Virus record (IMG/VR): IMGVR_UViG_3300035681_000021
Coordinates: 2,412-66,411 of that record
From: a virus
DNA: 64,000 bases
Reading direction: 5' to 3' (one strand)
Positions within the stretch are counted from its first letter, which is position 1, and every line of letters starts with the position of its first letter. Position numbers and translations under genes: made by a program. Under the pieces are notes generated by a model. It ran no database searches and had not been told where the DNA came from. It saw only the letters and a list, made by a program, of their open reading frames with translations. This document shows positions 6,452 through 39,916 of this stretch, one piece after another.

Positions 6452-9400
6452 ATGCCAATTTACAGCGTACAAGGCCCGGACGGACGGATTTACGATGTGG
6501 AGGGGCCTGCTGGCGCTTCTGAACAAGACATTATTGCTGCTGTAAGACGGCAGTTAACTCCGCAACAGCCTAAAAAACCACAAGAAACTACGTTCGGTGG
6601 GCAAACCAAGGAATTCTTTAAAGGTCTTGTCCCCGGCGCTATTGGGCTTGTTGAACAAGCCGGTACTGGTATATCAGCACTGCTGCCAGAAGAACAAGAA
6701 AAAGCCACACAACAATACATTAAAGAAGTTGCGGCTACAGCCAAGGCTCCGTTTGCCGCTGCGCCGGGGTATGAAGACACGGTGGGGCGCAAGTTTGGTG
6801 AAGCCACAGGTTCTATCGCGCCGTTCCTTGCCACTGGGCCGTTTGGTCTGGCAGGGCGTGTAGCCGGATACGGCCTTGGTATTGGCGCTGGTGCTGGCAC
6901 ACAGGTAGAGAAGTCTGCCGCTGAAGGGGCTACAGAAGGACAACAAACTGCCTCCACTGCACTTGGTGCTGTGGTAGGCGCATCAGAGATGTTTGCCCCC
7001 ACACGTATTCTGAAACGTCTTGGGGAGCCTGTGCTTGAGGGTGCCACGTCGTATGTAAAACGTGCGTTGATGGCTGGCGGTGAGGAAGCCGCACAAGAAG
7101 CCGCAGCACAAGCCGCACAGAACATTATCAGCAAAGGTATATACAAACCTGAGCAACAAATCATTGAGCAGGTTGGTGAGTCTGCCGCCTACGGCGGTGC
7201 AGTCGGCGCGTTAGCGCAAGGGTTGTTGGACTTAGCTATTGGTCGTCGTGCGCCTACAACCCCGCTTACAGACGAGGTAAAACAAGCCCGTGAAGAAGCG
7301 GCTGCGCAGGCAGAACAAGAAAAGATACGGCTGAACAGCCCTGAGTACGCCCAAGAAGTATTCCAGAAGACGCAGGAATTGGAAGCGCAGCGCACGGCGC
7401 TCAAACAGCAATTAATTCCAATAAGGAAAGGCGAATCCCCAGAAACGGATTACGCACACAACCGTGAAATCAACCGCCAGATCGAGGCCATAAACAAAGA
7501 ACTCAAGCCATTGGCTGAGGAGTATGTGCGTGTCAAGCCTATTCTGAAACGTGCTGAGGAAGAAGCACGAGTTGCCAAGCTAACTCCGTATGAGTATGCG
7601 TTGGGCATGGAGCCTGAGGAGATTGGGCAGGCACCTGCTGAGCCTGAGCTGTATGAACAGCAGATTGCCGCGCCGCCTGCGGCACCGAAGGCGGGAGATG
7701 CTGCGGCGCGATATGCCGCTGAGAGCATCCAATTGGCCAACGAACAACAGCTTTCTAGTGAAAAATCCCCCAAAGATGCGGAGGCCGACTACGTTAAATA
7801 TTTGATGCGTAACCCCAACTTGGCTGAAGAAATTGAAAAAGGTAGATTGCAATTACCCGGCCTACCTACTGGTGTGCGTAACTCTGCCGTGTTGGACGCG
7901 TTGAAGTTGCAGCTTGCGCCCATGCGCAAGGAGAAGGCAACCGCAGAAAGAACTGCCTTTGAACAAGAGATGGGCACACGCAAAACAGCGTTTGGTGTTA
8001 CCAAACCAGAGAAAGAAACTCCAGAGATACAGGCGTTCACTTCGTACATGGACGACCTCAAGAGCCAGCGTGATGACGTTGGTGATGACATGTTCTTCAA
8101 GTACATGGTCGAGCCAAAGCTGGAGAAAATTAGTGAGGGTAAACCCCCAGTCATAGCGGTCAATCCACAGTTGATGCCGTTTGCCAACATCAAACTGGCA
8201 GAACGCTCACGGGAAAAAATAAACAGTCTGTTTGATGAAATAGATCAGGCTAATAAGGATAGAGATGTCGCACTGCGCTCAAATAACCAAGACGCTGCAA
8301 CAGCGGCGTTTGAAAGAGGCAACCAAGCGTTAGAACAGCTCAACGCTTTTACAGAACCCACGCCTGCTGGAGAACTGACAAAAGGAAGGTTCCCAAGCGC
8401 CAAGGTAAGCCCACAAGCCAGCGTCTACGCCAAAGAAGTGCTACGGGTGCGCAATGAACAGAACACGGCTTTAAACACAATTGAAGACAAGATTGACCGT
8501 TTGCGTCGCGGTGAAACGTTGGGTAAAAATGAGATGGCGGCTACTTCGCCAGCCATACTGGCTAAACAAGCTGAGGAAGCTCGGGGCAAGTACATCTCTG
8601 CGGTGTTGGAAGAAGCCGCCATCCACCGTCGTGTTGCTGGTAAACCCGCACTGACTTACGACGAAGCCATCAAGGCCTCGTCGCGCATTCATGATGTGGT
8701 GGGTGAATGGTTGAATCGCGCACAGGCAACGCCTGTAGCGCCTGAGTTTGAAGAAGTTGTGGTGCAACCAGCGCAGATGCGGGCAAACAAACTTGTCCGT
8801 GGCGCTGTTACCAAACGTGTTTTGAAGACCCGTGATCTGGCCACAACGCCATTGAATGAAATTGCACGCTTGAGTGATAAAGAAATCAAGCACTTCAAAG
8901 CGCAGATTGCCAAAGTTGTTGACAGCTTATCCCAACTGCCATCGCAGGTTTCACGTGAAACACCAGTACTGAAACAGCAGTTTGCCAGCACTGAAGCACA
9001 GAAAGTTGCTGAAGCCAAAGGTGAAACCGCCAAGACACTTGGTGGAGAACTACGCCGTCGCACAGAATTTGTGCGGAACTTGATGGCTAAGCCGCCTCTC
9101 AAGCCGTTGACAGAAGAAACTCGCAAAACGTTAAACCTGAAGTTGCTTGACCGCGCCGTTGACATCATGGACAGCGGCAAAGCCTCACGCGGTTTGTTGG
9201 ATGCTGTTGAACCTATTGTCACAAACTTGGCTGAAGGCCGTGAGGTTCTTTCGCAAGATATCCAAGCCCTTGATGATGCCATAAAGCTGTATGAACGTAC
9301 AGCCCAAGAAGGTGAGATTGCTGGTGAAGGCGCAGCAGGTCAAGGCCAGTTGTTCCCTGAGACCCGCAAAGACATTGGTTATATCCGTGCCACTCCCGCC

Positions 9401-12400
9401 AACTTTGCCAAATCCCCACAGATCAAGCCTGTGTGGGAAGCGCTGGATCAAGCACGCAAGCTCAAGGCAAAAACAGAAGCCAACCAGAAAGCGCGTTCTG
9501 TCAGAGACAAACAAGGCTTTGCGCAAGTTGAAGCAATAGAAGAACAACTTGAAGCCATTAAAAACCAAATGCAGTTTTTCCTGCTCAAGCCGGGAGACTT
9601 CAATATTGGCAAGTACTCGAATGCAGACATTGCAAAAATGTTTGCGTCATACCCAGAAGCAGGCGTTACAAAAGAAGACAAGCTGCTGATGGATCGGTAT
9701 TTGCAAGTGTCTAGACAAAGTATTGGTAAGACTGCTGAGCAAAAAGAACAAGCCATGTCCGTGTTTACTGAGGAAGAAAAACAAAAAGTAAACAGGTTAA
9801 TCCAAGACTTCAACGCAAGCAAAATTCCTGAGTACGAAAAGAACGTTAAGCAGGCGCTGCAAGCACTTTCATTGGGGCAACGCCTTGAAAGCACAAACAA
9901 TCGCTTAGTTGAGTTAATGCAAGACAACAATGCGGCTGTGCGTAAACAATCAGAAGCAGCCCGCAAAATTGTTGAGCCACTACTGGACAAGTTAAAGCTT
10001 ATCAAAGACAGTTTGCGTAACTCTGTTCTGTTGACTGATGGCCAACGCGCAATGCTTGATTCCGAAATTGCATTGCAAGCACAACGTGGCGCATACAAAG
10101 ACGCTATGGCCAAGGCGATGGGCAAAGCCCGTCAACGCCTGTCTGATACGTTGGGTGAATTGCTTGATCCTGAGATCGAACGCGCACGTCGTGCTTTGAA
10201 AGCTGCTAAGACACGTCTGGCCACAGTTGAGTCGCAGATTGAAGCGGCCAAGAAAGAAATGACTGAGGGTACTGGCCAAGCGCCAAACCTGATTAACAAC
10301 TTGCAGAAAGTGCAAGGGCTTGTTGAGAACATTGAAAAAGCGGAAACAGAACTGGCCGACTTGCAAGAAGCCCGTTTTGGTGAGATTGAGAACGATGTTG
10401 TTGTCACCGAAGCCATGTTGGACAAAGACCTCAAATCAGAACGCGAGTATTTAGAACTGCTTGAGCGTCAGTTGGCAGACATGCGCAAGGAATCTTTGAC
10501 CGCTGTTGAACTTGGTGGTCGTGGCGAACTGGGTAAGTTGAAGTACCCGTTCTCTGCACAACGTTTAGAAACGCAAGTAAAAACACAGCAAGCTGCGGTT
10601 GATGAAGCACAGAAACGTGCGAACGAATTCCAAAAAGATGTGGAAGTCTGGTGGCCTAAGGTTACTGCTGCGTTCAAGAAGGACGGCATTAGCATCAAAG
10701 ACTTGCCCGGTGCAGTGTTTAAGAAAGGCCGCAAAGTTGCGGACATCAGCACGCCGGAACAAAAGCGCCTTGATGATTTGCGTGACAAAGGTGTGCAAGC
10801 CGCAAAAGAAGTTGACGAAGCCGCAGTACTTCAGCGGGTCAAAGACAAACAAATTGAAATGTTTGATGATGAAATCTTTGACGCACGCGGTGAAGTGCAA
10901 TCGTTCATGGGGCCAGAAAACATGGAGCAGTTGGCCGACATCATGGCCGACCCCAAAACCACCAACGTCAAACGCGTACAGGCAACCCTCAAGCTGGGCG
11001 CTATGCAGAAGCTGGCTTCGTTGGAAGCACAGAAAGAAGTTTTTCTTACAGGCAAACCTGCACCAACACCCAAGGCAGCTACTGTGCCGAGCACTTCTGC
11101 GTTGGCGGCAGCTAAACCATTCCGTACTGGGTCAGGCGTAGCGAAAGCGTTTACTCCAGCAGAAATGGATGAGATGGCTCGTGCTGATATACGCGATGCC
11201 AACGAGCTGGCCAAAAAGATTCTGGGCACCAAAGCACCCCAGCTGAAAGAGCCAAGCAAACGCAAGCAAGGCAAGCTGCTTGACCCCAACATGGGGTTGT
11301 TTGACGACTTTGAATTTTCTCGTGGCACACCAGTTAAAGGTTTGACCAAGGCTGAGCTTGAAGCCGAACTTACCGCCGGTATGGGAGAGCCAGTTACTGG
11401 GCGCAATGTAGAAAAACAAATCGCTGACAAGTTGGCGGTGTATGAAGACCTTGATGATTACCTGAGCAAATTTAAACCTGCTTCTCGTGATTGGTATAAA
11501 GGGCAGATACCTAAAGACGCTAAAGGCTTTGTGCAAGATGGTAAAGCGGTACTGTTTGCCAACAACATTGGTAAAGGCCACGGACTGGGCGTACTGCTCC
11601 ACGAAGTCGGCGTGCATTTGGGATTTCGCAACTTCTTTAACGAAGGCCAGTACAACGCGTTGGTTAAGACAGTCAAAAACTGGGCGACCAAAACTGACGA
11701 TTCAATGGAAGCGCGTGTTGGTAAAGCCGCCATGCGCAGGGTTGAAGCTGCGCAAACACCTGAAAATCAGATTGACGACGAGTTGTTGGCGTACGCTGTT
11801 GAAGAAGCCATGCAGATGGGTGTAGAACCTGTTGGCGTTAAAGGCGGCAACGCAGTTAAGAATTGGTTGAAGATGGTGGTGGACGGGTTCAAGAAAGCGC
11901 TTGAGAAGTTTGGCATCAGCGCCAAGAACTTGACTGCGGGCGACTTGGTTAACTTTGCCTACGGCGCAGCGCACCTTGAACTTAAAGGAACTTGGCACGG
12001 CACAGGTGTTAAGTTTGATATGTTTGACCACACCTATATGAGTTCTGGTGAAGGCGCTCAAGCATTTGGCTATGGTACATATCGTGCACAAAGATACGGC
12101 ACCGCTGACTACTATCGCGATGTTGCACAAGGTTCGCAGCTTAAAAAATGGTTGGAGCGGCCTGATGTGCAAGCGTGGAGAGCTAGTCAAAGGCCAGAAC
12201 TAATACGTAAAGCGCCCGACGTTGTTCCTGACTGGATGCTTGAAAACGCAATAGAAGAAGCGGCAAACCCGTATGCAGGCATTTCTCCACACATGATGTT
12301 TACGGATTCTATTGAACGCCAAATAAAAGAGTTGAAAGATTTGCGCAGCGACCCCAACATGCAGGATGTTGGTTTTGGTATTCAAACAGACAAAGAGTTT

Positions 12401-15400
12401 AAAGAAACGATTGATAAACTCAAAGAATTTGCAAAAAATGCAGACGGGTACATAGATGCGCCCTTTGAAAAACCTCTGTATAAAGGTAAACAATTCTATA
12501 ACTTGTACGACACAAACCCCGCAGCGCACGCTGTTTTGAGAGACTTTGAAGTGGCGTTGGGTAAGGGCGAAAAACCTTCTTTTAAAGAAATAATTGCAGA
12601 AATAAAAGTGGATGCCGCAAACACAATGAAAGTGTTTGAAATGGCTACAACCAGTCCAGATGAAAATTTTGTTTATAAGCGTAACAAACAAATATATGAA
12701 GATGCAGACAAGCTTAACCTTGATGACTTTAAGTATCGCTTAGTATCTGGCCCACCTGTGCCACAGCCTTCTGGCTACATGTTGCGCACGCTTCATACGC
12801 GTCCAGAGAATGAGTACATCCACTGGGATGACGCTGCGGATAGTCAACCACCAGTTGTGAAAGATGTGTTCAAGCGCATCTATGATTCTTTAGATAAAAC
12901 TCAGCAACAAAACTTTGATCGTTCGATTGGCACATCGCCAACTGATCGCCAAAACGGACAGCAGTTGTATGAAGCACTGAGCGCCGTTCTTGAAAAAGGC
13001 GGTATGCCCAGCGAGTTGTCTGACCGGTTTGCGTCCGAGATGCTTCACGCTGAAGGTATTGCGGGCATTAAGTTTTTTGACAACCGTTCCAGAACCAAAA
13101 AAGAAGGCACGTTTAACTACGTTGACTTTGGCGACAAAGATGAAGGTGCGCAGATCATTGCCACTGACATCAACCCAATCAATCGTACAAACCCTCCGGC
13201 GGGAGATATGCTGTTCTCGCGTTCAGAAGAGTTCACAAATCCTGAACTTGCCAAACAGGGTGAATTTATTAAGAAAATTGTGGCTACAGACAAAACGTTG
13301 TGGCAAAAAATAAAAGCCAACTTAACAGGTTTGGCTTTTGAGACACAGCTTGTGGATAGGTTTGCAGGCTTTGAGCGTTTGGCCAAATACATGGATGAGG
13401 TCAAGGGAACGCAGATGCTGTATTACTTGCGCATGTACGACCAGCGCATGAACTTTGTGTCCCAAGCAGTATCCAACGGCGCACCGGCAATCGTGGAAAA
13501 GACAAGAGCTGACGGCAAGATTGAGCGCTTGCTTGAGAGCAAAGAGAGCGCCAACATACACAACGTTGTGCAAATTCTGAAAGATGCGCAGCCTATGGTT
13601 GGCAATGCGGAAGCGGTAAACCGTGTGTTTACTTTGTACATGGCGGCTATCCGTGCAGACAACAAAGGTTTGGCTTCGTTGAACTTTGGTGAAGACGTTA
13701 CACAAGCGTTGCTTGATAAAACTATGGCCGCCGTCAAAAACACCCCCGGCTTAGAAAAAGTTTTGAAGCAAGCAAAAGACGAGTACAACGAGTACAACCG
13801 CAACTTAATTGAGTTTGTTGTCAGCACTGGCGCACTGTCAAAAGAAGTTGGTAAACGTTTGGTTAGAGAAAACGACTACATACCCTTCTATCGTGAACGC
13901 AACGGCGTAGCCGAACTTTTAATTGGTGGCGAGTCTCCTATCCGCATTGGTAGTATTGCCGAACAGCCATATCTGCATGAGCTTGTTGGCGGCGACAGGC
14001 CGATTCTTGACTTCATGACAAGCTCGGTGCAAAACACCAACTTGTTGATGGACATGGGTATGCGCAATCTGGCTACCAAGAACGCTGTGTTTGAGTTGGT
14101 TGATCTCAAAGCTGCTAAGTTTGTGAAGATGTCTGCTGGCCCTGACGTTGTTAAATTCCGCGATGATGGTGAAGATCGTTACGCTGTTATTGCTACCGAA
14201 AAGGTCAAGATTGGCAACAAGGAGTTTGATACCGGCGTACCCGCCGACATACTGGTCAAAGGCATGGAGGGCATCCCCACACAGATGCCAGCAATGTTGC
14301 GCGTCATGGCTTTCCCAGCACAGATATTGCGCAAAGCTATTACCCTCAGCCCTTTGTACACAGCCAAACAATTGTTCCGTGACTCCTTGGCCGCGCCTAT
14401 TCTTTCTGGCGCAGACTTTATGCCTGTCATTGGTGCGTTGAAAGAAATTAACTCCGCTACCAAAAAGACACTTGAGCGCCGCGGTGTTACCGGAGGCCAG
14501 CAGTTTGTTGGTGGCGCTGAAGACTTGACCAAGATTCTGCGTGATGTGTCTGAAGGTAAGCCGGGCTGGATGACAGCACTTGGCAAGCTTGAAGCCATGA
14601 GCATGGAGGCAGATGCCACAACCCGCCGTGCGCAGTACAACAGCTACCTTGAGCAAGGTCTGTCTGAGATGGAGGCAACGTTGTTGGCGCTGGAGTCCAT
14701 GAACTTTAACAAGCGCGGCGCGTCACCCTCAATCCATGTGGCCAACTCCCTGATACCTTTCTTCAACGCACAGATTCAAGGTCTGAACGTGTTGTACAAA
14801 GCGTCTATGGGTAAGATGCCATTCAACGATCAGTTGCGTATTCGTGAAAAAATGATGCAGCGTGGTGCCATGATGGCTGTTGCCAGCCTCGCCTACGTCG
14901 CCATAATGGAGGACGACGAAGCGTACAAGAACGCAACGCCCGATCAGAAATACGGCAACTGGTTTATCCGTGTGCCGGGTTTAGACGAACCCATCAAACT
15001 GCCTGTGCCTTTTGAAATTGGCTACATCTTCAAAGCGTTGCCCGAGGCGTTGTACAACAGCATGGTCAGTGAGCACGGTGGTGAGGAAGCAGTCAAAGCT
15101 TTCAAACAAATCCTTCTCCAGACAATTCCCGGTGGCTCGTCTTACGGCATCCCACAGATCATGAAACCCGCCATCGAGGCAGGGCTTGGCAAGTCGTTCT
15201 ACACAGGTCGGGACATCTTGTCTGCGCGGGAGAAAGAGCTGTTGCCCGAAGAACAGTTCCGCGCCAACACATCCGAGCTGGCCAAAGGTATCGGTAAAGC
15301 ATTTGGCATATCCCCAATTGTGTTTGAACAACTTGTCAGCGGCTACACCGGCACTATGGGGCTTGCGTTCATGCACGCACTGAGTGTGGCCGCGCCTACG

Positions 15401-15808
15401 GATGAGAGTCCTGAGAAAGCCGTTAAACGTTTGTCGGAGTACCCAATTCTTGGCGGTGCGTTCCAACCAAACGACGCTGGTGGCATCATCAACAGCGTGT
15501 ATGAGCGCATGAATGAAAACATCAAAGTCAAGCAGTCGTTCGACAAGATGGTTGAAGAAGGACGCATGTCGGAAGCCAAGGCGTTGTTGCAAAGACGAGG
15601 TAACGAGTACTTGCAGGCGGAAATGGCGTACAGCTTTAAGAGCGACATGAACAAACTCACTCAGGCTGAACGGGCGATTGCGGCATCAAACATGTCACCT
15701 GAAGCCAAGCGTGAGCAGCTTGATAAAATCAGGAAGATAAAGATCGCCGTTGCTCAAACGGTGAGAGAGGTTTCCGATAAAACCATACGCCTAGCAACCC
15801 CTTTCTGA
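6452..15808 (+). CDS. Large polyvalent virion protein (zincin-like metallopeptidase, ADP-ribosyltransferase-like domain, LPD38-like C-terminus)
   Basis: 3118-aa ORF; LLHEVGVH...DELLAYAVE; WHGT...GEGAQAFGYGTY...GIKFFD...NYVDF; C-terminal IPFFNAQIQG...LPVPFEIG...IEAGLGKSFYTGRDI. Confidence 0.75.
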   Translation: MPIYSVQGPDGRIYDVEGPAGASEQDIIAAVRRQLTPQQPKKPQETTFGGQTKEFFKGLVPGAIGLVEQAGTGISALLPEEQEKATQQYIKEVAATAKAPFAAAPGYEDTVGRKFGEATGSIAPFLATGPFGLAGRVAGYGLGIGAGAGTQVEKSAAEGATEGQQTASTALGAVVGASEMFAPTRILKRLGEPVLEGATSYVKRALMAGGEEAAQEAAAQAAQNIISKGIYKPEQQIIEQVGESAAYGGAVGALAQGLLDLAIGRRAPTTPLTDEVKQAREEAAAQAEQEKIRLNSPEYAQEVFQKTQELEAQRTALKQQLIPIRKGESPETDYAHNREINRQIEAINKELKPLAEEYVRVKPILKRAEEEARVAKLTPYEYALGMEPEEIGQAPAEPELYEQQIAAPPAAPKAGDAAARYAAESIQLANEQQLSSEKSPKDAEADYVKYLMRNPNLAEEIEKGRLQLPGLPTGVRNSAVLDALKLQLAPMRKEKATAERTAFEQEMGTRKTAFGVTKPEKETPEIQAFTSYMDDLKSQRDDVGDDMFFKYMVEPKLEKISEGKPPVIAVNPQLMPFANIKLAERSREKINSLFDEIDQANKDRDVALRSNNQDAATAAFERGNQALEQLNAFTEPTPAGELTKGRFPSAKVSPQASVYAKEVLRVRNEQNTALNTIEDKIDRLRRGETLGKNEMAATSPAILAKQAEEARGKYISAVLEEAAIHRRVAGKPALTYDEAIKASSRIHDVVGEWLNRAQATPVAPEFEEVVVQPAQMRANKLVRGAVTKRVLKTRDLATTPLNEIARLSDKEIKHFKAQIAKVVDSLSQLPSQVSRETPVLKQQFASTEAQKVAEAKGETAKTLGGELRRRTEFVRNLMAKPPLKPLTEETRKTLNLKLLDRAVDIMDSGKASRGLLDAVEPIVTNLAEGREVLSQDIQALDDAIKLYERTAQEGEIAGEGAAGQGQLFPETRKDIGYIRATPANFAKSPQIKPVWEALDQARKLKAKTEANQKARSVRDKQGFAQVEAIEEQLEAIKNQMQFFLLKPGDFNIGKYSNADIAKMFASYPEAGVTKEDKLLMDRYLQVSRQSIGKTAEQKEQAMSVFTEEEKQKVNRLIQDFNASKIPEYEKNVKQALQALSLGQRLESTNNRLVELMQDNNAAVRKQSEAARKIVEPLLDKLKLIKDSLRNSVLLTDGQRAMLDSEIALQAQRGAYKDAMAKAMGKARQRLSDTLGELLDPEIERARRALKAAKTRLATVESQIEAAKKEMTEGTGQAPNLINNLQKVQGLVENIEKAETELADLQEARFGEIENDVVVTEAMLDKDLKSEREYLELLERQLADMRKESLTAVELGGRGELGKLKYPFSAQRLETQVKTQQAAVDEAQKRANEFQKDVEVWWPKVTAAFKKDGISIKDLPGAVFKKGRKVADISTPEQKRLDDLRDKGVQAAKEVDEAAVLQRVKDKQIEMFDDEIFDARGEVQSFMGPENMEQLADIMADPKTTNVKRVQATLKLGAMQKLASLEAQKEVFLTGKPAPTPKAATVPSTSALAAAKPFRTGSGVAKAFTPAEMDEMARADIRDANELAKKILGTKAPQLKEPSKRKQGKLLDPNMGLFDDFEFSRGTPVKGLTKAELEAELTAGMGEPVTGRNVEKQIADKLAVYEDLDDYLSKFKPASRDWYKGQIPKDAKGFVQDGKAVLFANNIGKGHGLGVLLHEVGVHLGFRNFFNEGQYNALVKTVKNWATKTDDSMEARVGKAAMRRVEAAQTPENQIDDELLAYAVEEAMQMGVEPVGVKGGNAVKNWLKMVVDGFKKALEKFGISAKNLTAGDLVNFAYGAAHLELKGTWHGTGVKFDMFDHTYMSSGEGAQAFGYGTYRAQRYGTADYYRDVAQGSQLKKWLERPDVQAWRASQRPELIRKAPDVVPDWMLENAIEEAANPYAGISPHMMFTDSIERQIKELKDLRSDPNMQDVGFGIQTDKEFKETIDKLKEFAKNADGYIDAPFEKPLYKGKQFYNLYDTNPAAHAVLRDFEVALGKGEKPSFKEIIAEIKVDAANTMKVFEMATTSPDENFVYKRNKQIYEDADKLNLDDFKYRLVSGPPVPQPSGYMLRTLHTRPENEYIHWDDAADSQPPVVKDVFKRIYDSLDKTQQQNFDRSIGTSPTDRQNGQQLYEALSAVLEKGGMPSELSDRFASEMLHAEGIAGIKFFDNRSRTKKEGTFNYVDFGDKDEGAQIIATDINPINRTNPPAGDMLFSRSEEFTNPELAKQGEFIKKIVATDKTLWQKIKANLTGLAFETQLVDRFAGFERLAKYMDEVKGTQMLYYLRMYDQRMNFVSQAVSNGAPAIVEKTRADGKIERLLESKESANIHNVVQILKDAQPMVGNAEAVNRVFTLYMAAIRADNKGLASLNFGEDVTQALLDKTMAAVKNTPGLEKVLKQAKDEYNEYNRNLIEFVVSTGALSKEVGKRLVRENDYIPFYRERNGVAELLIGGESPIRIGSIAEQPYLHELVGGDRPILDFMTSSVQNTNLLMDMGMRNLATKNAVFELVDLKAAKFVKMSAGPDVVKFRDDGEDRYAVIATEKVKIGNKEFDTGVPADILVKGMEGIPTQMPAMLRVMAFPAQILRKAITLSPLYTAKQLFRDSLAAPILSGADFMPVIGALKEINSATKKTLERRGVTGGQQFVGGAEDLTKILRDVSEGKPGWMTALGKLEAMSMEADATTRRAQYNSYLEQGLSEMEATLLALESMNFNKRGASPSIHVANSLIPFFNAQIQGLNVLYKASMGKMPFNDQLRIREKMMQRGAMMAVASLAYVAIMEDDEAYKNATPDQKYGNWFIRVPGLDEPIKLPVPFEIGYIFKALPEALYNSMVSEHGGEEAVKAFKQILLQTIPGGSSYGIPQIMKPAIEAGLGKSFYTGRDILSAREKELLPEEQFRANTSELAKGIGKAFGISPIVFEQLVSGYTGTMGLAFMHALSVAAPTDESPEKAVKRLSEYPILGGAFQPNDAGGIINSVYERMNENIKVKQSFDKMVEEGRMSEAKALLQRRGNEYLQAEMAYSFKSDMNKLTQAERAIAASNMSPEAKREQLDKIRKIKIAVAQTVREVSDKTIRLATPF

Positions 15809-20304: not shown

Positions 20305-20754
20305 TTACTTGGTTGGTTTGCGAACAGAGATTGCGTACTCAGTCAATGAGTTCAATCCGGGTGGTACGAGGCCGGGGTTATCTTCAAGGAATGTTGCCAT
20401 ATTGGTCTGCGCAATACGCTTCTCCAACAAATCAACGGCTTCGTGTTGAAGCACGAATGTCTTGAATGAATCCCAGTCTTGTGTGTTGTAGCGTGTCTTT
20501 GTGGACAACACTACAGTGCCTTGGTCAGTGCGCACAGAGGACACGCCCAGTGCAAGCATCTGATCTTTGAGGGCAATCTTCACGGTGTCTTGCTGCCGTT
20601 TGATTTCCTCAACTTCGTTTTCGTACGCTTGAGTCAGCTCTTGAATTCGAGCCGCCATCTTACGGTACACCTTTGCCAACTTGTCCATTGGGACAGTGGC
20701 CAATTCATTGCTCTCCTCTTGCGGGGGAGCGTCATCATCGACTGTTGCAGTCAT
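20305..20754 (-). CDS. Conserved phage replication-module protein
   Basis: Coiled coil then SVRTDQGTV...DWDSF...PPGL; strong RBS. Confidence 0.6.
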   Translation of the reverse strand: MTATVDDDAPPQEESNELATVPMDKLAKVYRKMAARIQELTQAYENEVEEIKRQQDTVKIALKDQMLALGVSSVRTDQGTVVLSTKTRYNTQDWDSFKTFVLQHEAVDLLEKRIAQTNMATFLEDNPGLVPPGLNSLTEYAISVRKPTK

Positions 20755-23140: not shown

Positions 23141-23152
23141 TTGCTTCTCCTT

Positions 23153-24661: not shown

Positions 24662-24671
24662 GATGCTCTCC

Positions 24672-26639
24672 TCATGATTTTGCTAACCCGTACCTACGGT
24701 GCGCACCACCGTCAGCGGCCAAGGGTATCCCCGGCATGTAACTCGGTTCCATAGTCATCTGCGCCAAGACCCAAGTCTTAGCGTCAGCAACTTCTTCATC
24801 CGGCACAACAGCGATCAACTCGTCGTGCACCGTTCCAGCGATGGGGTACTTCTTCGATACCCTCAACATGCCATCCGTCATCACGATTCTGGCAAGCGCT
24901 TGCGTCACATTGTTCGTTATCTTACCTGCATACAGCTTCGTTGCACGCTCTCCGTACACCCACTGCGGTTTGCCGTTATCACCCTGTTCAAGGCGAAGAT
25001 TGGGGTACAGAAGTTTCATTCCGTTTGGTAATTCTATCTCGCCTTTGCGGAATGTCAAACACTTGTGCTTGTGCTCTTTACCCAGATACAAACATCTGGT
25101 TATAAGCTCGCTGAACAACCCCCACATGGACACAATCGGCCAAGCAGTACGGCGATAGGTGTCGATGATTGCCTTGGCGGCGAGGGCGTGGGTCAAGAGT
25201 TCTTTGTCAGAACAAGTGTGGGGGATGTCGAACAGCTTGGTATCGTTGCCGTCCCAGCTGGCAAACTCCTGTGCGTACTCAGAGTTAACCCCTAACGCCT
25301 TGGCGAAGTCTTTGGAGTACCTGACAGGCGGCGCACCAAGGAACCCCACAAGAAGCTGGGACGCGAACGATGCCCAACCGAGACCATACCCGCAACCCAA
25401 GAGCGCACTCTTCGCAGACTGCCGGAGGTCGGGATGCGAGTCCTTAGTAAGTCCGGGTATGTTAAACATCTGCGCTCCGAACGCCGCGTAAGGGTCACCA
25501 CCTGACCTGAAGATGTCAAGCATCTCATAGTAATCCGAAAGCCACGCGAGTACTCGCGGTTCAATTTGTGAGAGGTCACCGACGACCAGACTGTACCCTT
25601 CGGGAGCCATAATCGCTTTGCGTAAGAAACTTCCACGCTTGAGGTTTTGCATGTTGATTGCTGAACCTTTTGCTGCCGTCCACCTGCCCGAGAGAGCACC
25701 GTAATACGAGAGCGGAACCGGTAGTTTGCCGCGCTGGCTAATGTCAAGGAAGCGTTGTGCACGTGTGCGCTCGGTTGTGGATTTAACTTTAAGGCGTGCC
25801 TCACAAAGGAGGGCAACGTCTTCACGTTCACCGTTGAGCAACGCTTGGAAGAGGGCATCATTCTTTGCAAAAGCGTACGTCGTTTTGCCGGTAGTTTTAC
25901 TGACCTTAGTCGGGGGAGTAACCCCGAGGCTTTCAAGTACGTTTGCAAACTTCGGGTTCGACGCAAGCTCAACTTCTTGTATGCCGAGTTTTTGTAGTAG
26001 TCCTTCACGCAGTTCTCCTTCTTCTGTCAGTGCTTTGATAAGCATCTTGCTGTCAAGCTCAAGCTGTGGTCGTGTGTACATCTTGAGCGTCATGTCGATC
26101 AGACGCAATTCGGATTTGGGATAACCGGCTGAGAGTCGTTTGAAGATTTCCTCGCACAGGTACACATCATGGGCACAGTACTCGGCGAGTTCTCGTTCAA
26201 TGGTAACGTCCAGTTCAAGTAGTCCGTTGGTGCTGTGTACAGCTGTTCCTTTAGCAGGGAGTCCAAAAGCTTCTGCAAGTTTGGCGAGGGAATTACCAAC
26301 CTCCACGCCGCGTAAAGCTCGCGCCATTGATAGTGTGTCGAAGATGAATGCTGGTCTGGCGTTATATATCCACTCCATAATGGATACATCGAACTGTGCG
26401 TTGTGCGCAAGCACTGCGGTTCGTCCCCAGTTGATTCCAGAAAAGTATTCACGTAGTCCATCTCCTCCAACCCATTCAATTGGACTATCGGCTCCGAACT
26501 CATGTACGCATACTCCAAATGCTTGAAACCTTTTGTCACGGATGTACTCCTCTGTTGTCATTTTTGATAATGTGTACTCTTTGCTGTCCCACCGAGTTTC
26601 AAAGTCGATGGTCAGGATGCGGTCAAATGGTTTTGTCAA
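24672..26639 (-). CDS. Family A DNA polymerase with 3'-5' exonuclease
   Basis: DFET, HNAQFD, YCAHD exonuclease motifs; DLSQIE (A), RQSAKSALLGCGYG (B), VHDE (C); TTG start. Confidence 0.93.
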   Translation of the reverse strand: MTKPFDRILTIDFETRWDSKEYTLSKMTTEEYIRDKRFQAFGVCVHEFGADSPIEWVGGDGLREYFSGINWGRTAVLAHNAQFDVSIMEWIYNARPAFIFDTLSMARALRGVEVGNSLAKLAEAFGLPAKGTAVHSTNGLLELDVTIERELAEYCAHDVYLCEEIFKRLSAGYPKSELRLIDMTLKMYTRPQLELDSKMLIKALTEEGELREGLLQKLGIQEVELASNPKFANVLESLGVTPPTKVSKTTGKTTYAFAKNDALFQALLNGEREDVALLCEARLKVKSTTERTRAQRFLDISQRGKLPVPLSYYGALSGRWTAAKGSAINMQNLKRGSFLRKAIMAPEGYSLVVGDLSQIEPRVLAWLSDYYEMLDIFRSGGDPYAAFGAQMFNIPGLTKDSHPDLRQSAKSALLGCGYGLGWASFASQLLVGFLGAPPVRYSKDFAKALGVNSEYAQEFASWDGNDTKLFDIPHTCSDKELLTHALAAKAIIDTYRRTAWPIVSMWGLFSELITRCLYLGKEHKHKCLTFRKGEIELPNGMKLLYPNLRLEQGDNGKPQWVYGERATKLYAGKITNNVTQALARIVMTDGMLRVSKKYPIAGTVHDELIAVVPDEEVADAKTWVLAQMTMEPSYMPGIPLAADGGAHRRYGLAKS

Positions 26640-29747: not shown

Positions 29748-30193
29748 GCTGCTTCTCCTTGTGTTAACTCTGTTGGTATCTCGACTTCATCACCCATCTT
29801 GGACGCAACATAGCAACGCATGGCTGCAATGAGGGGGGTGGGGCCACATACAAAGGCATCCCGATAGAGTTTTATTGATTCCTCCCCTATGCCGACTGCT
29901 TTATTTGCCCCTAATGTTGCCGCCCACAATCGCCGCCCCATATGCCCCGCTTTTTCGCGCACAATAAAAATGCTTTCCCTCTCAATAATCATCCCACCTT
30001 GTGCCCAGTTGGTTGATGGGCTAATAGGGTCACTGTGTAAACCCATGTCCCCACGAAAAACTCGCACTGTGCCGTTGAGCACGACTGGTATGGACTTGAA
30101 TGGTGCGGGCATGTCGCACTCGCACTTCACCACCGCCCAATCAAGGGCGGCTCCTGTCAGTTGGTTTGTTTTCATTTGTGTTTTTCTTTGCAT
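29735..30193 (-). CDS. DUF2591/NinX-like phage protein
   Basis: LTGAALDWAV, PSTNWAQGG-x-IIE, GPTPLIAAMRCYVAS. Confidence 0.75.
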   Translation of the reverse strand: MQRKTQMKTNQLTGAALDWAVVKCECDMPAPFKSIPVVLNGTVRVFRGDMGLHSDPISPSTNWAQGGMIIERESIFIVREKAGHMGRRLWAATLGANKAVGIGEESIKLYRDAFVCGPTPLIAAMRCYVASKMGDEVEIPTELTQGEAACLI

Positions 30194-31096: not shown

Positions 31097-31120
31097 GTTG
31101 TGCTCTCCTTGGTTGATTGA

Positions 31121-36604: not shown

Positions 36605-36753
36605 TCTGCTTCTCCTTGATAACACCAAACATCCTGTTGCAAAGCATCAGGTTCGTATTCGCCATTGGCAATTTCCAACAGCATGGACACCAGCGTGTCC
36701 ATAGTCACATCACTTCCCAGCCATGCGACCAGTTGTTCTCTTGTTACTTTCAT
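36601..36753 (-). CDS. 50-aa hypothetical protein (not in ORF track)
   Basis: MKVTREQLVAWLGSD...QGEAE; ATGA-coupled on both sides. Confidence 0.6.
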   Translation of the reverse strand: MKVTREQLVAWLGSDVTMDTLVSMLLEIANGEYEPDALQQDVWCYQGEAE

Positions 36754-36896
36754 TCTGCTTCTCCCTCAATAGTTCTGATTGCTTCTTCAATGGCGGCTAT
36801 GCCATCGTCCTTGTTGCCCTTTGTCAGGTCGTACAGGGCGGCGTTGAGAATCTCCCACACCAGTTGTGCGGTGCGTGCGTCTATGTCTTTAATCAT
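36750..36896 (-). CDS. 48-aa hypothetical protein
   Basis: MIKDIDART...EGEAE; RBS GGAG. Confidence 0.6.
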   Translation of the reverse strand: MIKDIDARTAQLVWEILNAALYDLTKGNKDDGIAAIEEAIRTIEGEAE

Positions 36897-38437: not shown

Positions 38438-38830
38438 TCAGATTGAAGCCAAGAAGCGACGCTTCTCAGCCGCAGTCATTGCCTGATACGCTGTCACAAG
38501 CTTGGTTACCTTGTCCTTCTTCTTGCTTGTCTTTGGTTTCTTTGCGTCTGCCTCGACATCCACAAAGATGTTGTCGAGAATCCTATCGGTGCGTCTTTGC
38601 TCGGCAGTACCTCGCCCGAATGTCCAACCACGCTGACCCTCGTAAGGCTTGCGTGTGACCTTGGGCAGTTGCGTCACATAGAACACGACATAAGGCACAG
38701 CGTCCTTGCGTGTGCCTACACCGTTGGCAAGCAAGGTGTCGAGCAAACTGGCAGACGAGATGTCTGCGAGTTTCAGGGTAGGAACGATTGCACGATAGGT
38801 GTTTGCATTGATTGCTGTTGCGAGTTTCAT
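38438..38830 (-). CDS. First gene of the leftward arm, basic protein
   Basis: MKLATAIN start after GGAGAGC; 130 aa. Confidence 0.7.
   Translation of the reverse strand: MKLATAINANTYRAIVPTLKLADISSASLLDTLLANGVGTRKDAVPYVVFYVTQLPKVTRKPYEGQRGWTFGRGTAEQRRTDRILDNIFVDVEADAKKPKTSKKKDKVTKLVTAYQAMTAAEKRRFLASI
38746..38772. repeat. 27-bp palindrome, copy 5 (intragenic)
   Basis: AACTGGCAGACG-AGA-TGTCTGCGAGTT. Confidence 0.85.
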
Positions 38831-38842
38831 AGATAGCTCTCC

Positions 38843-38869
38843 AAAAGAAAAACCCCGCAACTGGCGGGG
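38843..38869 (-). terminator. Intrinsic terminator in the early leader
   Basis: Minus strand CCCCGC-CAGTT-GCGGGG-TTTTTCTTTT. Confidence 0.65.
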
Positions 38870-38905
38870 CGACAGAACGACTGAGTTCCCCCAATCGATA
38901 AATCT

Positions 38906-38914
38906 ATTATAGCA
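38906..38914 (-). promoter_or_regulatory. Extended -10 promoter for the leftward arm
   Basis: TGcTATAAT consensus on the minus strand. Confidence 0.65.
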
Positions 38915-39135
38915 CAAACAGGTTTGGCAATACCCTTGACACGATAAATGTGAATACCTTAGACCCCACCGTACCCCCATGACCCCATATGTCAGCGAGG
39001 CATGCGTCGTTGTGTGAACACTATTCCCCTCCGATTCTCAGCACTTCTGTAATACTTAAGTTGTTTAAGTATCCAATCCCGTTTTTTAAGTATCTAGTAC
39101 CCCCCATAAATTTTATAAAAATTCCAAACAACCTT

Positions 39136-39151
39136 TGTCAAACGTTGGACA
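39136..39151. promoter_or_regulatory. 16-bp operator-like palindrome
   Basis: TGTCAAACGTTGGACA. Confidence 0.5.
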
Positions 39152-39162
39152 GCAACACCTAT

Positions 39163-39246
39163 AAAAAAACCCCCCGACATTGCTGACGAGGGGTGTTAAC
39201 AGTTGGGTCACAACTGAGGAGAGAGCAAGTGCTTGCGCAACTGCTG
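39163..39246 (-). ncRNA. Candidate three-hairpin sRNA with exposed anti-SD
   Basis: -10 TACACT upstream; GCAA-tetraloop hairpin, CUCUCCU linker, CAGUUG/CAACUG hairpin, GC-rich terminator plus U7. Confidence 0.6.
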
Positions 39247-39281
39247 GAAATAAGTGTACACTGCACTCCAACGCGCAACAA
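39233..39281. promoter_or_regulatory. Overlapping divergent promoters
   Basis: Palindrome AGTGTACACT (39253-39262) gives -10 TACACT on both strands; TTGCGC at 39233 (+) and TTGTTG at 39281-39276 (-) are possible -35 boxes. Confidence 0.45.
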
Positions 39282-39307
39282 CCCTGTGAAAAAACACAGC
39301 TATAAAA

Positions 39308-39916
39308 ATGTTGGAGCATTTGGTGCAGTTTTCCCCAGACGACGCCGGTCTGGACGATTTTGTAAGTATTGCAGCTGTATCGTCAGCGGATTTACTGTCG
39401 GCGCAAATAGCCACGGCAGAGTTACTGGATGAGCTGGGTGTCACGCCGGATGACCAGATAAGTTACGAAGCCCAGACCCACGCGGCCCGCGACGCTTTCA
39501 AAGTGGTGATCGCCGACCAAGACTCTGAAGAACAGAAAACCAAACTGCTCCAATTAAAGACCCCCGCCGCTGTGCGCCACATTACAGGCATGTTGACAGC
39601 ATATGACTGGGAATTTGTACAGATGGCCAAAGAACTCCGTGGGTACACGGTGGCCAAGTTGTTTGAGGAAACCCAATCCCCCAACGCCAACATCCGACTG
39701 AAAGCCTTGGGCCTCTTGGGCAAGGTCACGGAAGTCGGGCTGTTCACCGACAAGATCGAAGTCAAGAAGACAGACCTGACCGACGAAGAGATCGACAAGA
39801 AACTCAAGGACAAGCTTGCCGCCTTCATGGGCGTGCAGGATATGGACGTTGTGGAAGACATTGAAATAAACGAACCACCTAATGAAACTCAGCAACCTGA
39901 CGCTCAGCCCGACTGA
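39308..39916 (+). CDS. Putative terminase small subunit
   Basis: Directly upstream of TerL; RLKALGLLGK...GLFTDKIEV pattern. Confidence 0.65.
   Translation: MLEHLVQFSPDDAGLDDFVSIAAVSSADLLSAQIATAELLDELGVTPDDQISYEAQTHAARDAFKVVIADQDSEEQKTKLLQLKTPAAVRHITGMLTAYDWEFVQMAKELRGYTVAKLFEETQSPNANIRLKALGLLGKVTEVGLFTDKIEVKKTDLTDEEIDKKLKDKLAAFMGVQDMDVVEDIEINEPPNETQQPDAQPD

Follow-up and report, generated by a model that had tools for sequence, protein, structure and literature searches.

The stretch of DNA analysed here (the window, 64,000 nucleotides) comprises bases 2412-66411 of the 66,411-bp IMG/VR virus record IMGVR_UViG_3300035681_000021, which has direct terminal repeats and is derived from an uncultured freshwater phage. 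Its two gene arms diverge from an intergenic region at 38981-39307, and in this region a small RNA (sRNA) gene is predicted on the minus strand, the subject of this study. The early, leftward arm (replication; 15916-38980) encodes a DUF927 primase-helicase, a family A DNA polymerase, a helicase, a PD-(D/E)XK nuclease, a NinX-like protein, and many small open reading frames (ORFs). The late, rightward arm (packaging and structural genes) starts at 39308 and encodes a 202-aa protein, the large terminase (TerL), and the portal; it continues past the record ends to a 3118-aa protein and ends at 15808. By TerL, the nearest cultured phages are approximately 50% identical, namely Phage DSL-LC04, the Pelagibacter phages HTVC027P and HTVC023P, and Planktothrix/Synechococcus phages; phage 023Pt_psg01 is a further cultured distant relative at the same TerL identity (about 50%). 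When the segment 38900-39400 was compared with 50,697 phage records by blastn, no match was obtained. Neither an integrase nor a repressor was identified among the scanned phage proteins.

The features of the sRNA gene and of its surroundings are listed in Table 1. A preliminary description of this DNA, made from the letters alone, had proposed a minus-strand RNA of three hairpins with a GCAA loop, a free CUCUCCU stretch, a terminator, and a TACACT -10 hexamer, and both RNAfold and the sequence agree with that proposal. The minimum free energy of the sRNA was -30.5 kcal/mol (z = -2.94), and equally good folding was obtained with 2 of 200 shuffled sequences in RNAfold. A run of T following the terminator stem is present on the minus strand only. 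Across 70 unique variants of the gene, TAYACT was found in all 70 and TTG 17 bp upstream of it in 64. The 5′ end of the RNA probably lies about 7 nt past the -10 hexamer, and the sRNA gene appears to be an independent transcription unit with its own promoter and its own intrinsic terminator. The U-rich stretch before the terminator and the poly-U tail resemble an Hfq-binding module; Pfam scans of 26 early-arm proteins detected no RNA chaperone, sigma factor, or RNA polymerase.

Table 1 Features of the sRNA locus and of the early-gene ribosome-binding sites (RBSs) in the window.
Feature	Position	Strand	Remarks
First late-arm gene, 202 aa	39308..39916	+	Anchor for recovering relatives
-35-like hexamer TTGTTG of the sigma70-like sRNA promoter	39276..39281	-	17 bp upstream of the -10; read from the sequence
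-10 hexamer TACACT	39253..39258	-	Within the 10-bp palindrome AGTGTACACT (39253-39262); TACACT on the + strand too
Predicted sRNA, about 84 nt	39163..39246	-	Fold, covariance model match, and covariation; 3′ end = U-tract
Hairpin 1 (AGCAG.UGC-GCAA-GCA.UUGCU)	39224..39245	-	RNAfold; GCAA loop; 3′ arm = 5′ part of the extended seed
Extended seed CACUUGCUCUCUCCU	39217..39231	-	Free core CUCUCCU at 39217-39223; one extra C relative to the family consensus UGCUUCUCCU
Hairpin 2 (CAGUUG-UGACC-CAACUG)	39200..39216	-	RNAfold
Intrinsic terminator	39163..39194	-	Stem 39169-39194, G+C-rich, U7 tail; RNAfold
Strong sigma70-type early promoter TTGACA-18-TATAAA	39112..39141	-	About 22 nt after the sRNA U-run; conserved in most relatives
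Target-type RBS AGGAGAAGCAA	20755..20765	-	Before ATG of a 149-aa gene
Target-type RBS AGGAGAAGCAA	23141..23151	-	Before GTG of a 145-aa gene; best duplex with the window's own seed, -21.7 kcal/mol
Target-type RBS AGGAGAAGCAA	33464..33474	-	Before a 398-aa DUF2201 gene
Target-type RBS GGAGAAGCA	29750..29758	-	Before a 174-aa gene
Target-type RBS GGAGAAGCA	36607..36615	-	Before a 77-aa gene
Target-type RBS GGAGAAGCA	36756..36764	-	Before a 50-aa gene
Variant RBS AGGAGAGCA	24664..24672	-	Before a 98-aa gene
Variant RBS AGGAGAGCA	31101..31109	-	Before a 295-aa DUF3150 gene
Variant RBS AGAGAGCAA	28518..28526	-	Before a 73-aa gene

The palindrome AGTGTACACT yields a -10-like hexamer on each strand. 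It had been claimed that the sRNA promoter overlaps the late promoter; at the level of sequence, overlapping divergent promoters fit both the palindrome and the hexamers of the lineage in which the sRNA is deleted (see below), where the minus-strand hexamer has lost its final T (TACACC) and the plus-strand one is intact (TACATT). We also considered GTGTAYACT as a repeated (late) promoter motif and rejected it, as 21 matches were found at no more than one mismatch against 23.5 expected, i.e., the motif is not enriched.

When the 202-aa protein was used as a query, 58 related IMG/VR loci were recovered, and a protein-alignment query gave at least 567 confirmed IMG/VR stretches, of which the best 80 were kept. 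The first covariance model, R1, built from the window and four close relatives, gave one match each, at the expected place and on the expected strand, in 35 of 35 variant sources. In the window the covariance model match (112 bits, 39163-39251) is the only one, and the broader model R2 matched 44 of 56 further IMG/VR loci, so that the conservation in relatives looked for at the outset is indeed observed. No match was detected in the 11-kb pieces of Phage DSL-LC04 and phage 023Pt_psg01 that were searched in place of the whole records.

In the alignment of 34 distinct sequences, which was fitted to the model and leans towards structure, 95.3% of the cells were paired, compared with 75.3% in shuffles, and none of 500 shuffles reached the former value. 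The stems are, however, too different between relatives for the model fitting to explain this result; hairpin 2 has at least eight different stems, for example CAGUUG/CAACUG, AGACU/AGUCU, CGGUUG/CGACCG, and GAUGG/CCAUC. Changes on both sides were found at 20 of 24 pairs (147 cells), consisting of 7 of 8 pairs in hairpin 1, 6 of 6 in hairpin 2, and 7 of 10 in the terminator. The covariation score was 0.568; when the partners were slid, it fell to 0.13 or less and pairing decreased to 34-54%. Read on the minus strand, the alignment contained 83 G-U cells and 36 non-pairs; read on the plus strand, it contained 3 G-U cells and 116 non-pairs, with 84.9% pairing. Since a G-U pair on the minus strand becomes an A-C mismatch on the plus strand, these counts settle the RNA strand as minus.

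Inspected by eye, the relatives have a common layout in which TAYACT and UGCUUCUCCU are invariant, the former preceding hairpin 1 and the latter lying between hairpins 1 and 2, and in which both hairpins and the terminator that follows, with its U-run, are variable. The seed thus stays constant while hairpin 1, hairpin 2, and the terminator vary; within hairpin 1, the 5′ arm varies and uses wobbles and the 3′ arm UGCU is fixed. The unpaired probability of the seed core was 0.84 against 0.40 for the whole RNA (70 unique variants), and the family accordingly has a conserved and accessible seed. By comparative criteria, the conserved and structured minus-strand RNA gene is real, and its structure is under selection. 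A leader peptide encoded on the plus strand opposite the seed was considered and discarded: no start codon follows the motif in 25 of 67 variants, the motif itself is missing in 7, and in the other 35 the ORFs range from 4 to 139 codons.

A further constant of the locus was noted in eight variants inspected by eye. Whatever the architecture of hairpin 1, the first GCAA sits 15-17 nt after the -10 hexamer (39227-39230 in the window). It reads TTGC on the plus strand and could be the -35 element of a divergent late promoter or an RNA-level constraint. In addition, GCAAGCAGUUG in hairpin 1 is common to many relatives.

The early operon follows directly after the sRNA gene and is read in the same direction; about 22 nt separate the end of the sRNA terminator from the early -35, and terminators are predicted within the early leader (38870-38852). 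Such an arrangement would suit a cis-acting transcription element, either an insulating terminator that shields the early promoter or a promoter-proximal leader whose terminator is bypassed by transcripts continuing into the early operon (compare lambda 6S/Q and HK022 put). Lambdoid 6S RNA and StxS (pR'-tR') are likewise short RNAs with a constitutive-looking promoter and a terminator just upstream of an operon in the control region. Expression of the downstream operon in lambdoid phages requires antitermination of the same transcript. Here, unlike in those phages, a separate near-consensus sigma70 promoter is predicted after the sRNA terminator (TTGACA-18-TATAAA at 39141-39112; its -10 ends in A, for which reason it escaped a consensus scanner), so that the early genes would need no read-through and the locus does not look like an antitermination leader, in which no promoter follows the terminator. 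An insulator, for its part, would need neither two more conserved hairpins nor a conserved promoter nor an invariant exposed 10-mer. A cis-acting element is hence quite improbable in our estimation.

The sites with which the seed may pair are RBSs of early genes. In the window, AGGAGAAGCAA occurs three times on the minus strand and not at all on the plus strand, and the six copies of GGAGAAGCA are likewise all on the minus strand, each directly preceding a start codon. A third copy of AGGAGAGCA, in addition to the two in Table 1, is present at 20709. All nine positions for which the preliminary description had claimed such a motif carry it just before a start codon, and the 14-bp pairing with one bulge that it had drawn at 23141, covering the GTG, is correct by inspection. 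Its statement that the late RBSs mostly lack the AGCA extension also agrees with our counts: the pattern G[GA]AG[AGT]{0,3}GCA matched 13 of 46 leftward (early) start regions and 0 of 59 rightward (late) ones (Fisher p = 7e-6), as delimited by our own simple ORF and Shine-Dalgarno (SD) heuristics. The extended motif is found at only about one quarter of the early start regions, and the first 2 kb or so of the early arm is without it in most lineages. In eight whole records with assigned strands, the sRNA gene itself being excluded, 25 exact copies of GGAGAAGCA were counted on the early strand, of which one fell outside the region expected for the early arm, and a single copy on the late strand; G011 gave no match.

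We then compared the pairing of the seed with the two sets of start regions. Duplexes with the consensus seed had a mean energy of -10.47 kcal/mol for early and -7.54 kcal/mol for late genes (Mann-Whitney U test, p = 1.2e-4). With the window's own seed the difference was again observed (p = 6.4e-5), and a generic 16S anti-SD control showed no early/late discrimination (p = 0.13). Among the 256 possible four-base extensions, UGCU ranked 4th by early mean energy and 2nd by the early-late difference. Furthermore, when the whole sRNA was cofolded with positions -35 to +20 of each gene, the energies, which include the cost of opening structure, were -6.58 for early and -3.80 kcal/mol for late genes (p = 1.3e-4), and a value of -10 kcal/mol or below was reached by 11 of 46 early and 1 of 59 late start regions; the leftward bias predicted in the preliminary description is thus recovered. 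In records of relatives, values of -14 or below were obtained for 8 of 38 early and 1 of 42 late regions in G001, and for 7 of 18 and 0 of 55, respectively, in G002. The complementarity of the seed to several mRNA start regions therefore exceeds that of the controls and, as predicted from sequence, appears specific to the early arm, being enriched leftward over rightward.

The more distant relatives carry seed variants, and these allow the seed to be compared with the RBSs of the same genome. In the clade with the seed UGCUUUCUCC (one extra U), two near-complete genomes contained no GGAGAAGCA; on their early strands, 6 and 10 unique copies of GGAGAAAGCA were found, all as AGGAGAAAGCA directly before a start codon, and one additional GGAGAAAGCA was on the late strand. 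On the early strand, 27 copies of GGAGAAGCA and 11 of GGAGAAAGCA were counted in genomes with the seed UGCUUCUCC; the corresponding numbers in the UGCUUUCUCC clade were 0 and 16 (Fisher p = 1.2e-6), and when only the sister clade was used, the GGAGAAGCA:GGAGAAAGCA ratio was 16:9 against 0:16 (Fisher p = 3.3e-5), both tests being nominal as sites of the same clade share ancestry. All 16 nt of the sRNA stretch CAUUUGCUUUCUCCUU in G009 are complementary to AAGGAGAAAGCAAAUG, a match that takes in the start codon, and AAGGAGAAAGCAAAUG is present at five unique start sites in that genome (contexts read by eye). At the two ends of this record, which is that of L160, about 1.8 kb is repeated with a few differences (offset 66,491 bases), and hence five motif sites are doubled in raw counts. 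The motif-bearing genes are mostly non-orthologous across clades, indicating that the tag is gained and lost gene by gene, in each clade's own form. In a cross-matrix of 18-nt seed duplexes, the consensus and U-insertion clades trended as expected; G006, G007, and G002 paired best with foreign seeds. The comparison covered genomes with sufficient early genes; the seed-variant lineages L047, L123, L142, L139, L144, L145, L149, and others, which have 3-4-kb flanks with few early genes, were left out.

From these results, we consider that the sRNA represses the translation of a set of early genes by pairing in trans, with a probability of about 0.6. A host-type promoter of its own (TTGnnn-17-TAYACT) would drive leftward transcription of the sRNA, which would end at the sRNA's own terminator. 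The pyrimidine stretch between the two hairpins (consensus UGCUUCUCCU) would then pair in trans with the extended SD/spacer motif AGGAGAAGCA(A); the free CUCCU would be where pairing begins, and from there it would spread into the 3′ arm of hairpin 1 and in some lineages reach the start codon. Since an sRNA duplex over the SD or AUG blocks initiation and often triggers mRNA decay, a duplex covering the SD and the start codon would block 30S binding and would lower the translation, and probably the stability, of the early/middle mRNAs. The late mRNAs, whose RBSs are without the extension, would escape.

The sequence does not determine the sign of the regulation, and the same pairing evidence would serve an sRNA that activates or protects the early mRNAs, for instance one that keeps a nuclease away from GGAG or melts an inhibitory structure. 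The SD, and in some lineages the AUG as well, lies within the predicted duplex, which by the established action of sRNAs blocks initiation, and the target start regions are A-rich and without obvious inhibitory structure. We therefore regard activation as very improbable.

Several observations weigh against repression of the early genes by the sRNA, beginning with the pairing itself. All of the gene calls behind the early/late contrasts are simple ORF and SD heuristics. When a two-strand gene caller, which is unbiased but noisier, was used with an SD filter and 18-nt seeds, the contrast was weaker, with p < 0.05 in 3 of 11 genomes (0.02 in the window, 0.061 in G001, 0.15 in G002, 0.06 in G013, 0.00077 in G014, 0.027 in G008, 0.26 in G009, 0.22 in G010, 0.10 in G012, 0.41 in G006, and 0.22 in G007). 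None of 40 early start regions can form an uninterrupted run of nine Watson-Crick pairs or more with the seed of the window; owing to the extra C in that seed, all of its duplexes need a bulge, although the bulged duplexes are still favourable (-14 to -22 kcal/mol). A search for RNA sequencing runs found no RNA dataset for the window. Five runs labelled RNA-Seq covered 7-8% of words and were flagged as probably DNA; in the four of them that were examined, contigs of relatives bridged the whole intergenic region, which is uninformative on expression.

The comparison between clades has its own weak points. The U-insertion clade is monophyletic on the neighbouring protein; hence the seed change is one event, and the sites within the clade are not independent. 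A single clear orthologous gene pair showed the change from C-type to U-type, and the other ortholog comparisons were mostly spurious antisense ORFs. The window clade has a +C seed and a sister a UC, and their RBSs are without a matching change. In G010 and G012, whose seed is UGCUAUCUCC, no exact complement GGAGAUAGCA was found, and G006 and G007, with diverged seeds, retain GGAGAAGCA or GGAGAGCA on the early strand. The covariation of seed and RBS motif that the preliminary description had proposed to look for in relatives thus appears to hold between the consensus and U-insertion clades; it fails in the window's +C clade, in G010/G012, and in G006/G007, and it is not general across lineages. 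One stretch of G006 may be noted in this connection. CUCGCUUCUCCCUCUGAG, with GCUUCUCC on the early strand, lies in the early leader about 200 nt downstream of the sRNA terminator, and it may be a cis anti-SD element in this diverged-seed lineage or a chance occurrence (3 such 8-mers on that strand in 65 kb).

Finally among these points, the sRNA has been lost in seven loci of one sub-clade (L122, L124, L128, L129, L131, L136, and L138). In this deletion lineage, the TACACC hexamer is followed almost directly by the early promoter, and L122 and L124 keep a remnant of about 35 nt with a small hairpin. No covariance model match was obtained, with filters off, in the examined parts of the G016, G017, G018, and G020 records (best E = 0.59). 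Motif-bearing RBSs nevertheless persist without the sRNA, three in G016 and five in G020; the sRNA therefore appears dispensable and the motif independent of it. The diverged-seed and deletion lineages form one clade on the protein tree, which looks like decay followed by loss.

That the motif outlives loss or divergence of the sRNA is also what would be expected if the two were uncoupled. The RBS would then be a translation enhancer, a recombination linker, or a site for a RegA-/RegB-like protein, and the seed would be complementary to it by descent, for instance from an inverted RBS cassette. The sRNA locus read on the plus strand does resemble an RBS followed by a start codon, and motif-bearing genes that are mostly non-orthologous across clades are as expected of spreading cassettes. 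Nevertheless, the seed remained unchanged while the rest of the sRNA diverged, it sits in the sole exposed stretch, the seed U was gained in exactly the clade in which all RBSs are of the longer type, and the plus-strand ORF is not conserved. For these reasons, we judge uncoupling improbable.

Another explanation accepts the sRNA and places its main targets in the host, i.e., it would act on host mRNAs or on SD sequences generally, in host shut-off or reprogramming, and the match with the phage early RBSs would be secondary. The free core CUCUCCU could pair with any AGGAG-type SD, and the phage RBSs, which keep the motif where the sRNA is diverged or deleted, do not need the sRNA. In addition, a weak resemblance (20.4 bits) links the 3′ two-thirds of the RNA to Rfam RF02278, a betaproteobacterial sRNA of the anti-SD type. 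However, conservation reaches past the SD core into UGCU, an extension placed 4th and 2nd among 256 on the early start regions of the phage itself, and the U-insertion clade matches its own RBS type exclusively. Hence, the host as the main target is rather unlikely.

Taking these alternatives and the deletion lineage into account, repression of early genes in trans would most economically be read as follows: early genes have the extended RBS as an independent feature, to which the sRNA, as an accessory regulator, is tuned. The preliminary description had gone further and proposed an RNA-based early-to-late switch. This proposal is not supported, as the motif is at only about one quarter of the early start regions, the promoter looks like an ordinary host-type one, and a sub-clade has deleted the sRNA and kept the motif. 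Since the promoter looks host-type and constitutive, gradual dampening of the early genes is as likely as a switch, and the sRNA looks more like an auxiliary modulator than a switch that the phage could not do without.

With respect to known RNAs, a search of the whole window against Rfam at gathering score gave no match. The toxic sRNAs of Burkholderia carry an anti-SD motif. RF02278 (Betaproteobacteria toxic sRNA) and RF02837 (Burkholderia anti-hemB) have the same layout as the phage RNA, consisting of a single-stranded pyrimidine anti-SD, a small hairpin, and an intrinsic terminator, and in cmscan the phage seed, hairpin 2, and terminator aligned end to end with RF02278, which was the best sub-threshold match. 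The score of 20.4 bits is far from the RF02278 gathering score of 50, so the RNA is not placed in that family. It differs from RF02278 in having an extra 5′ hairpin, in being phage-encoded, and in that its best-matching targets are the phage's own early genes. We read it as a putative trans-acting anti-SD sRNA variant outside the known Rfam families. For the Burkholderia toxic sRNAs, the function is reported as unknown (PMC4603805).

The c4 RNA of P1/P7 acts on one operon (ant) of a temperate phage, in immunity, and is processed from the same transcript, whereas the RNA described here would have about 10 or more dispersed candidate targets and its own promoter and terminator. The Rfam C4 model gave no match at E up to 10 in 39100-39330. 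According to the review PMC12197685, the phage-encoded c4 RNA pairs around an RBS and thereby blocks translation, and sequence differences in the RNA and its target set the heteroimmunity among relatives. This specificity resembles the two seed/RBS types of the present phage family. The phage sRNAs described there, namely DicF, Esr41, AsxR, and c4, act on host genes or a single phage operon (PMC12197685).

A similar logic is known from proteins. T4 RegA competes with ribosomes at about 30 mRNAs (PMC3014915). Acting at translation-initiation regions, the endoribonuclease RegB and the translational repressor RegA of T4 both down-regulate many early mRNAs post-transcriptionally, which is the logic predicted here, with an early RBS tag that is absent from late genes. 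RegA and RegB are proteins; here, in contrast, an RNA would recognise its targets by base pairing with a 9-16-nt tag. No RegA-/RegB-like RNA-binding or nuclease family was found in the general Pfam scans of 26 early-arm proteins, which included no dedicated search for these families. Neither this RNA nor the motif was found described in the literature searched, supplementary files being outside its scope.

The seed and the extended RBS may further constitute a lineage-specific address code, in which one RNA would read the 9-16-nt tag of an early regulon as an RNA analogue of T4 RegA/RegB, and may also provide sRNA-based exclusion or heteroimmunity among lytic freshwater phages. Related phages have different tag/seed pairs (GGAGAAGCA/UGCUUCUCC and GGAGAAAGCA/UGCUUUCUCC), and a resident RNA could therefore silence the early genes in co-infecting relatives of the same type and not those of the other type. 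We put this forward tentatively, as an unlikely extension of early-gene repression.

Few phage-encoded sRNAs are understood, and here one RNA appears matched to a tag that many early genes of the same phage have in common. At least 567 IMG/VR stretches encode the neighbouring protein, which makes the family a large one. If early-gene repression by the sRNA is true, the temporal or dosage control of a phage gene class would be exerted through RNA pairing at the RBS, a task so far known from T4 proteins. The two seed/tag types, the bulged variants, and the deletion lineages would then be natural experiments within the family, the tag and the sRNA would form a compact orthogonal pair directly testable in reporters, and a new RNA family would be available for annotating uncultured phage genomes.

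One scan of genome contigs gave a weak lead to the host, in the form of short contigs of metagenome-assembled genomes assigned to Limnohabitans (81% identity) and Lysinibacter (47%). The former, L199, is a 1,696-bp contig of an uncultured Limnohabitans that encodes an 81%-identical homologue of the 202-aa protein and a truncated U-insertion-type sRNA (E = 0.012). As these contigs are 1.7-2.8 kb long and their binning is weak, no host is named.

Other observations concern the neighbouring genes. The late arm is closed by the 3118-aa ORF (6452-15808, plus strand), whose sole match is a C-terminal PHROG of function not known (phrog_18222). The first late gene of the window has no recognisable SD. 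An inverted repeat, CTGTG-N6-CACAG (39284-39299), abuts the start codon of this gene just upstream of the sRNA -35 and is conserved in the window's group of relatives only. The early arm is headed by a 180-aa ORF (38438-38980, minus strand), which is without an SD and whose protein is conserved in 30 loci; inside this ORF are a promoter-like site (38930-38901) and a terminator-like hairpin (38870-38852).

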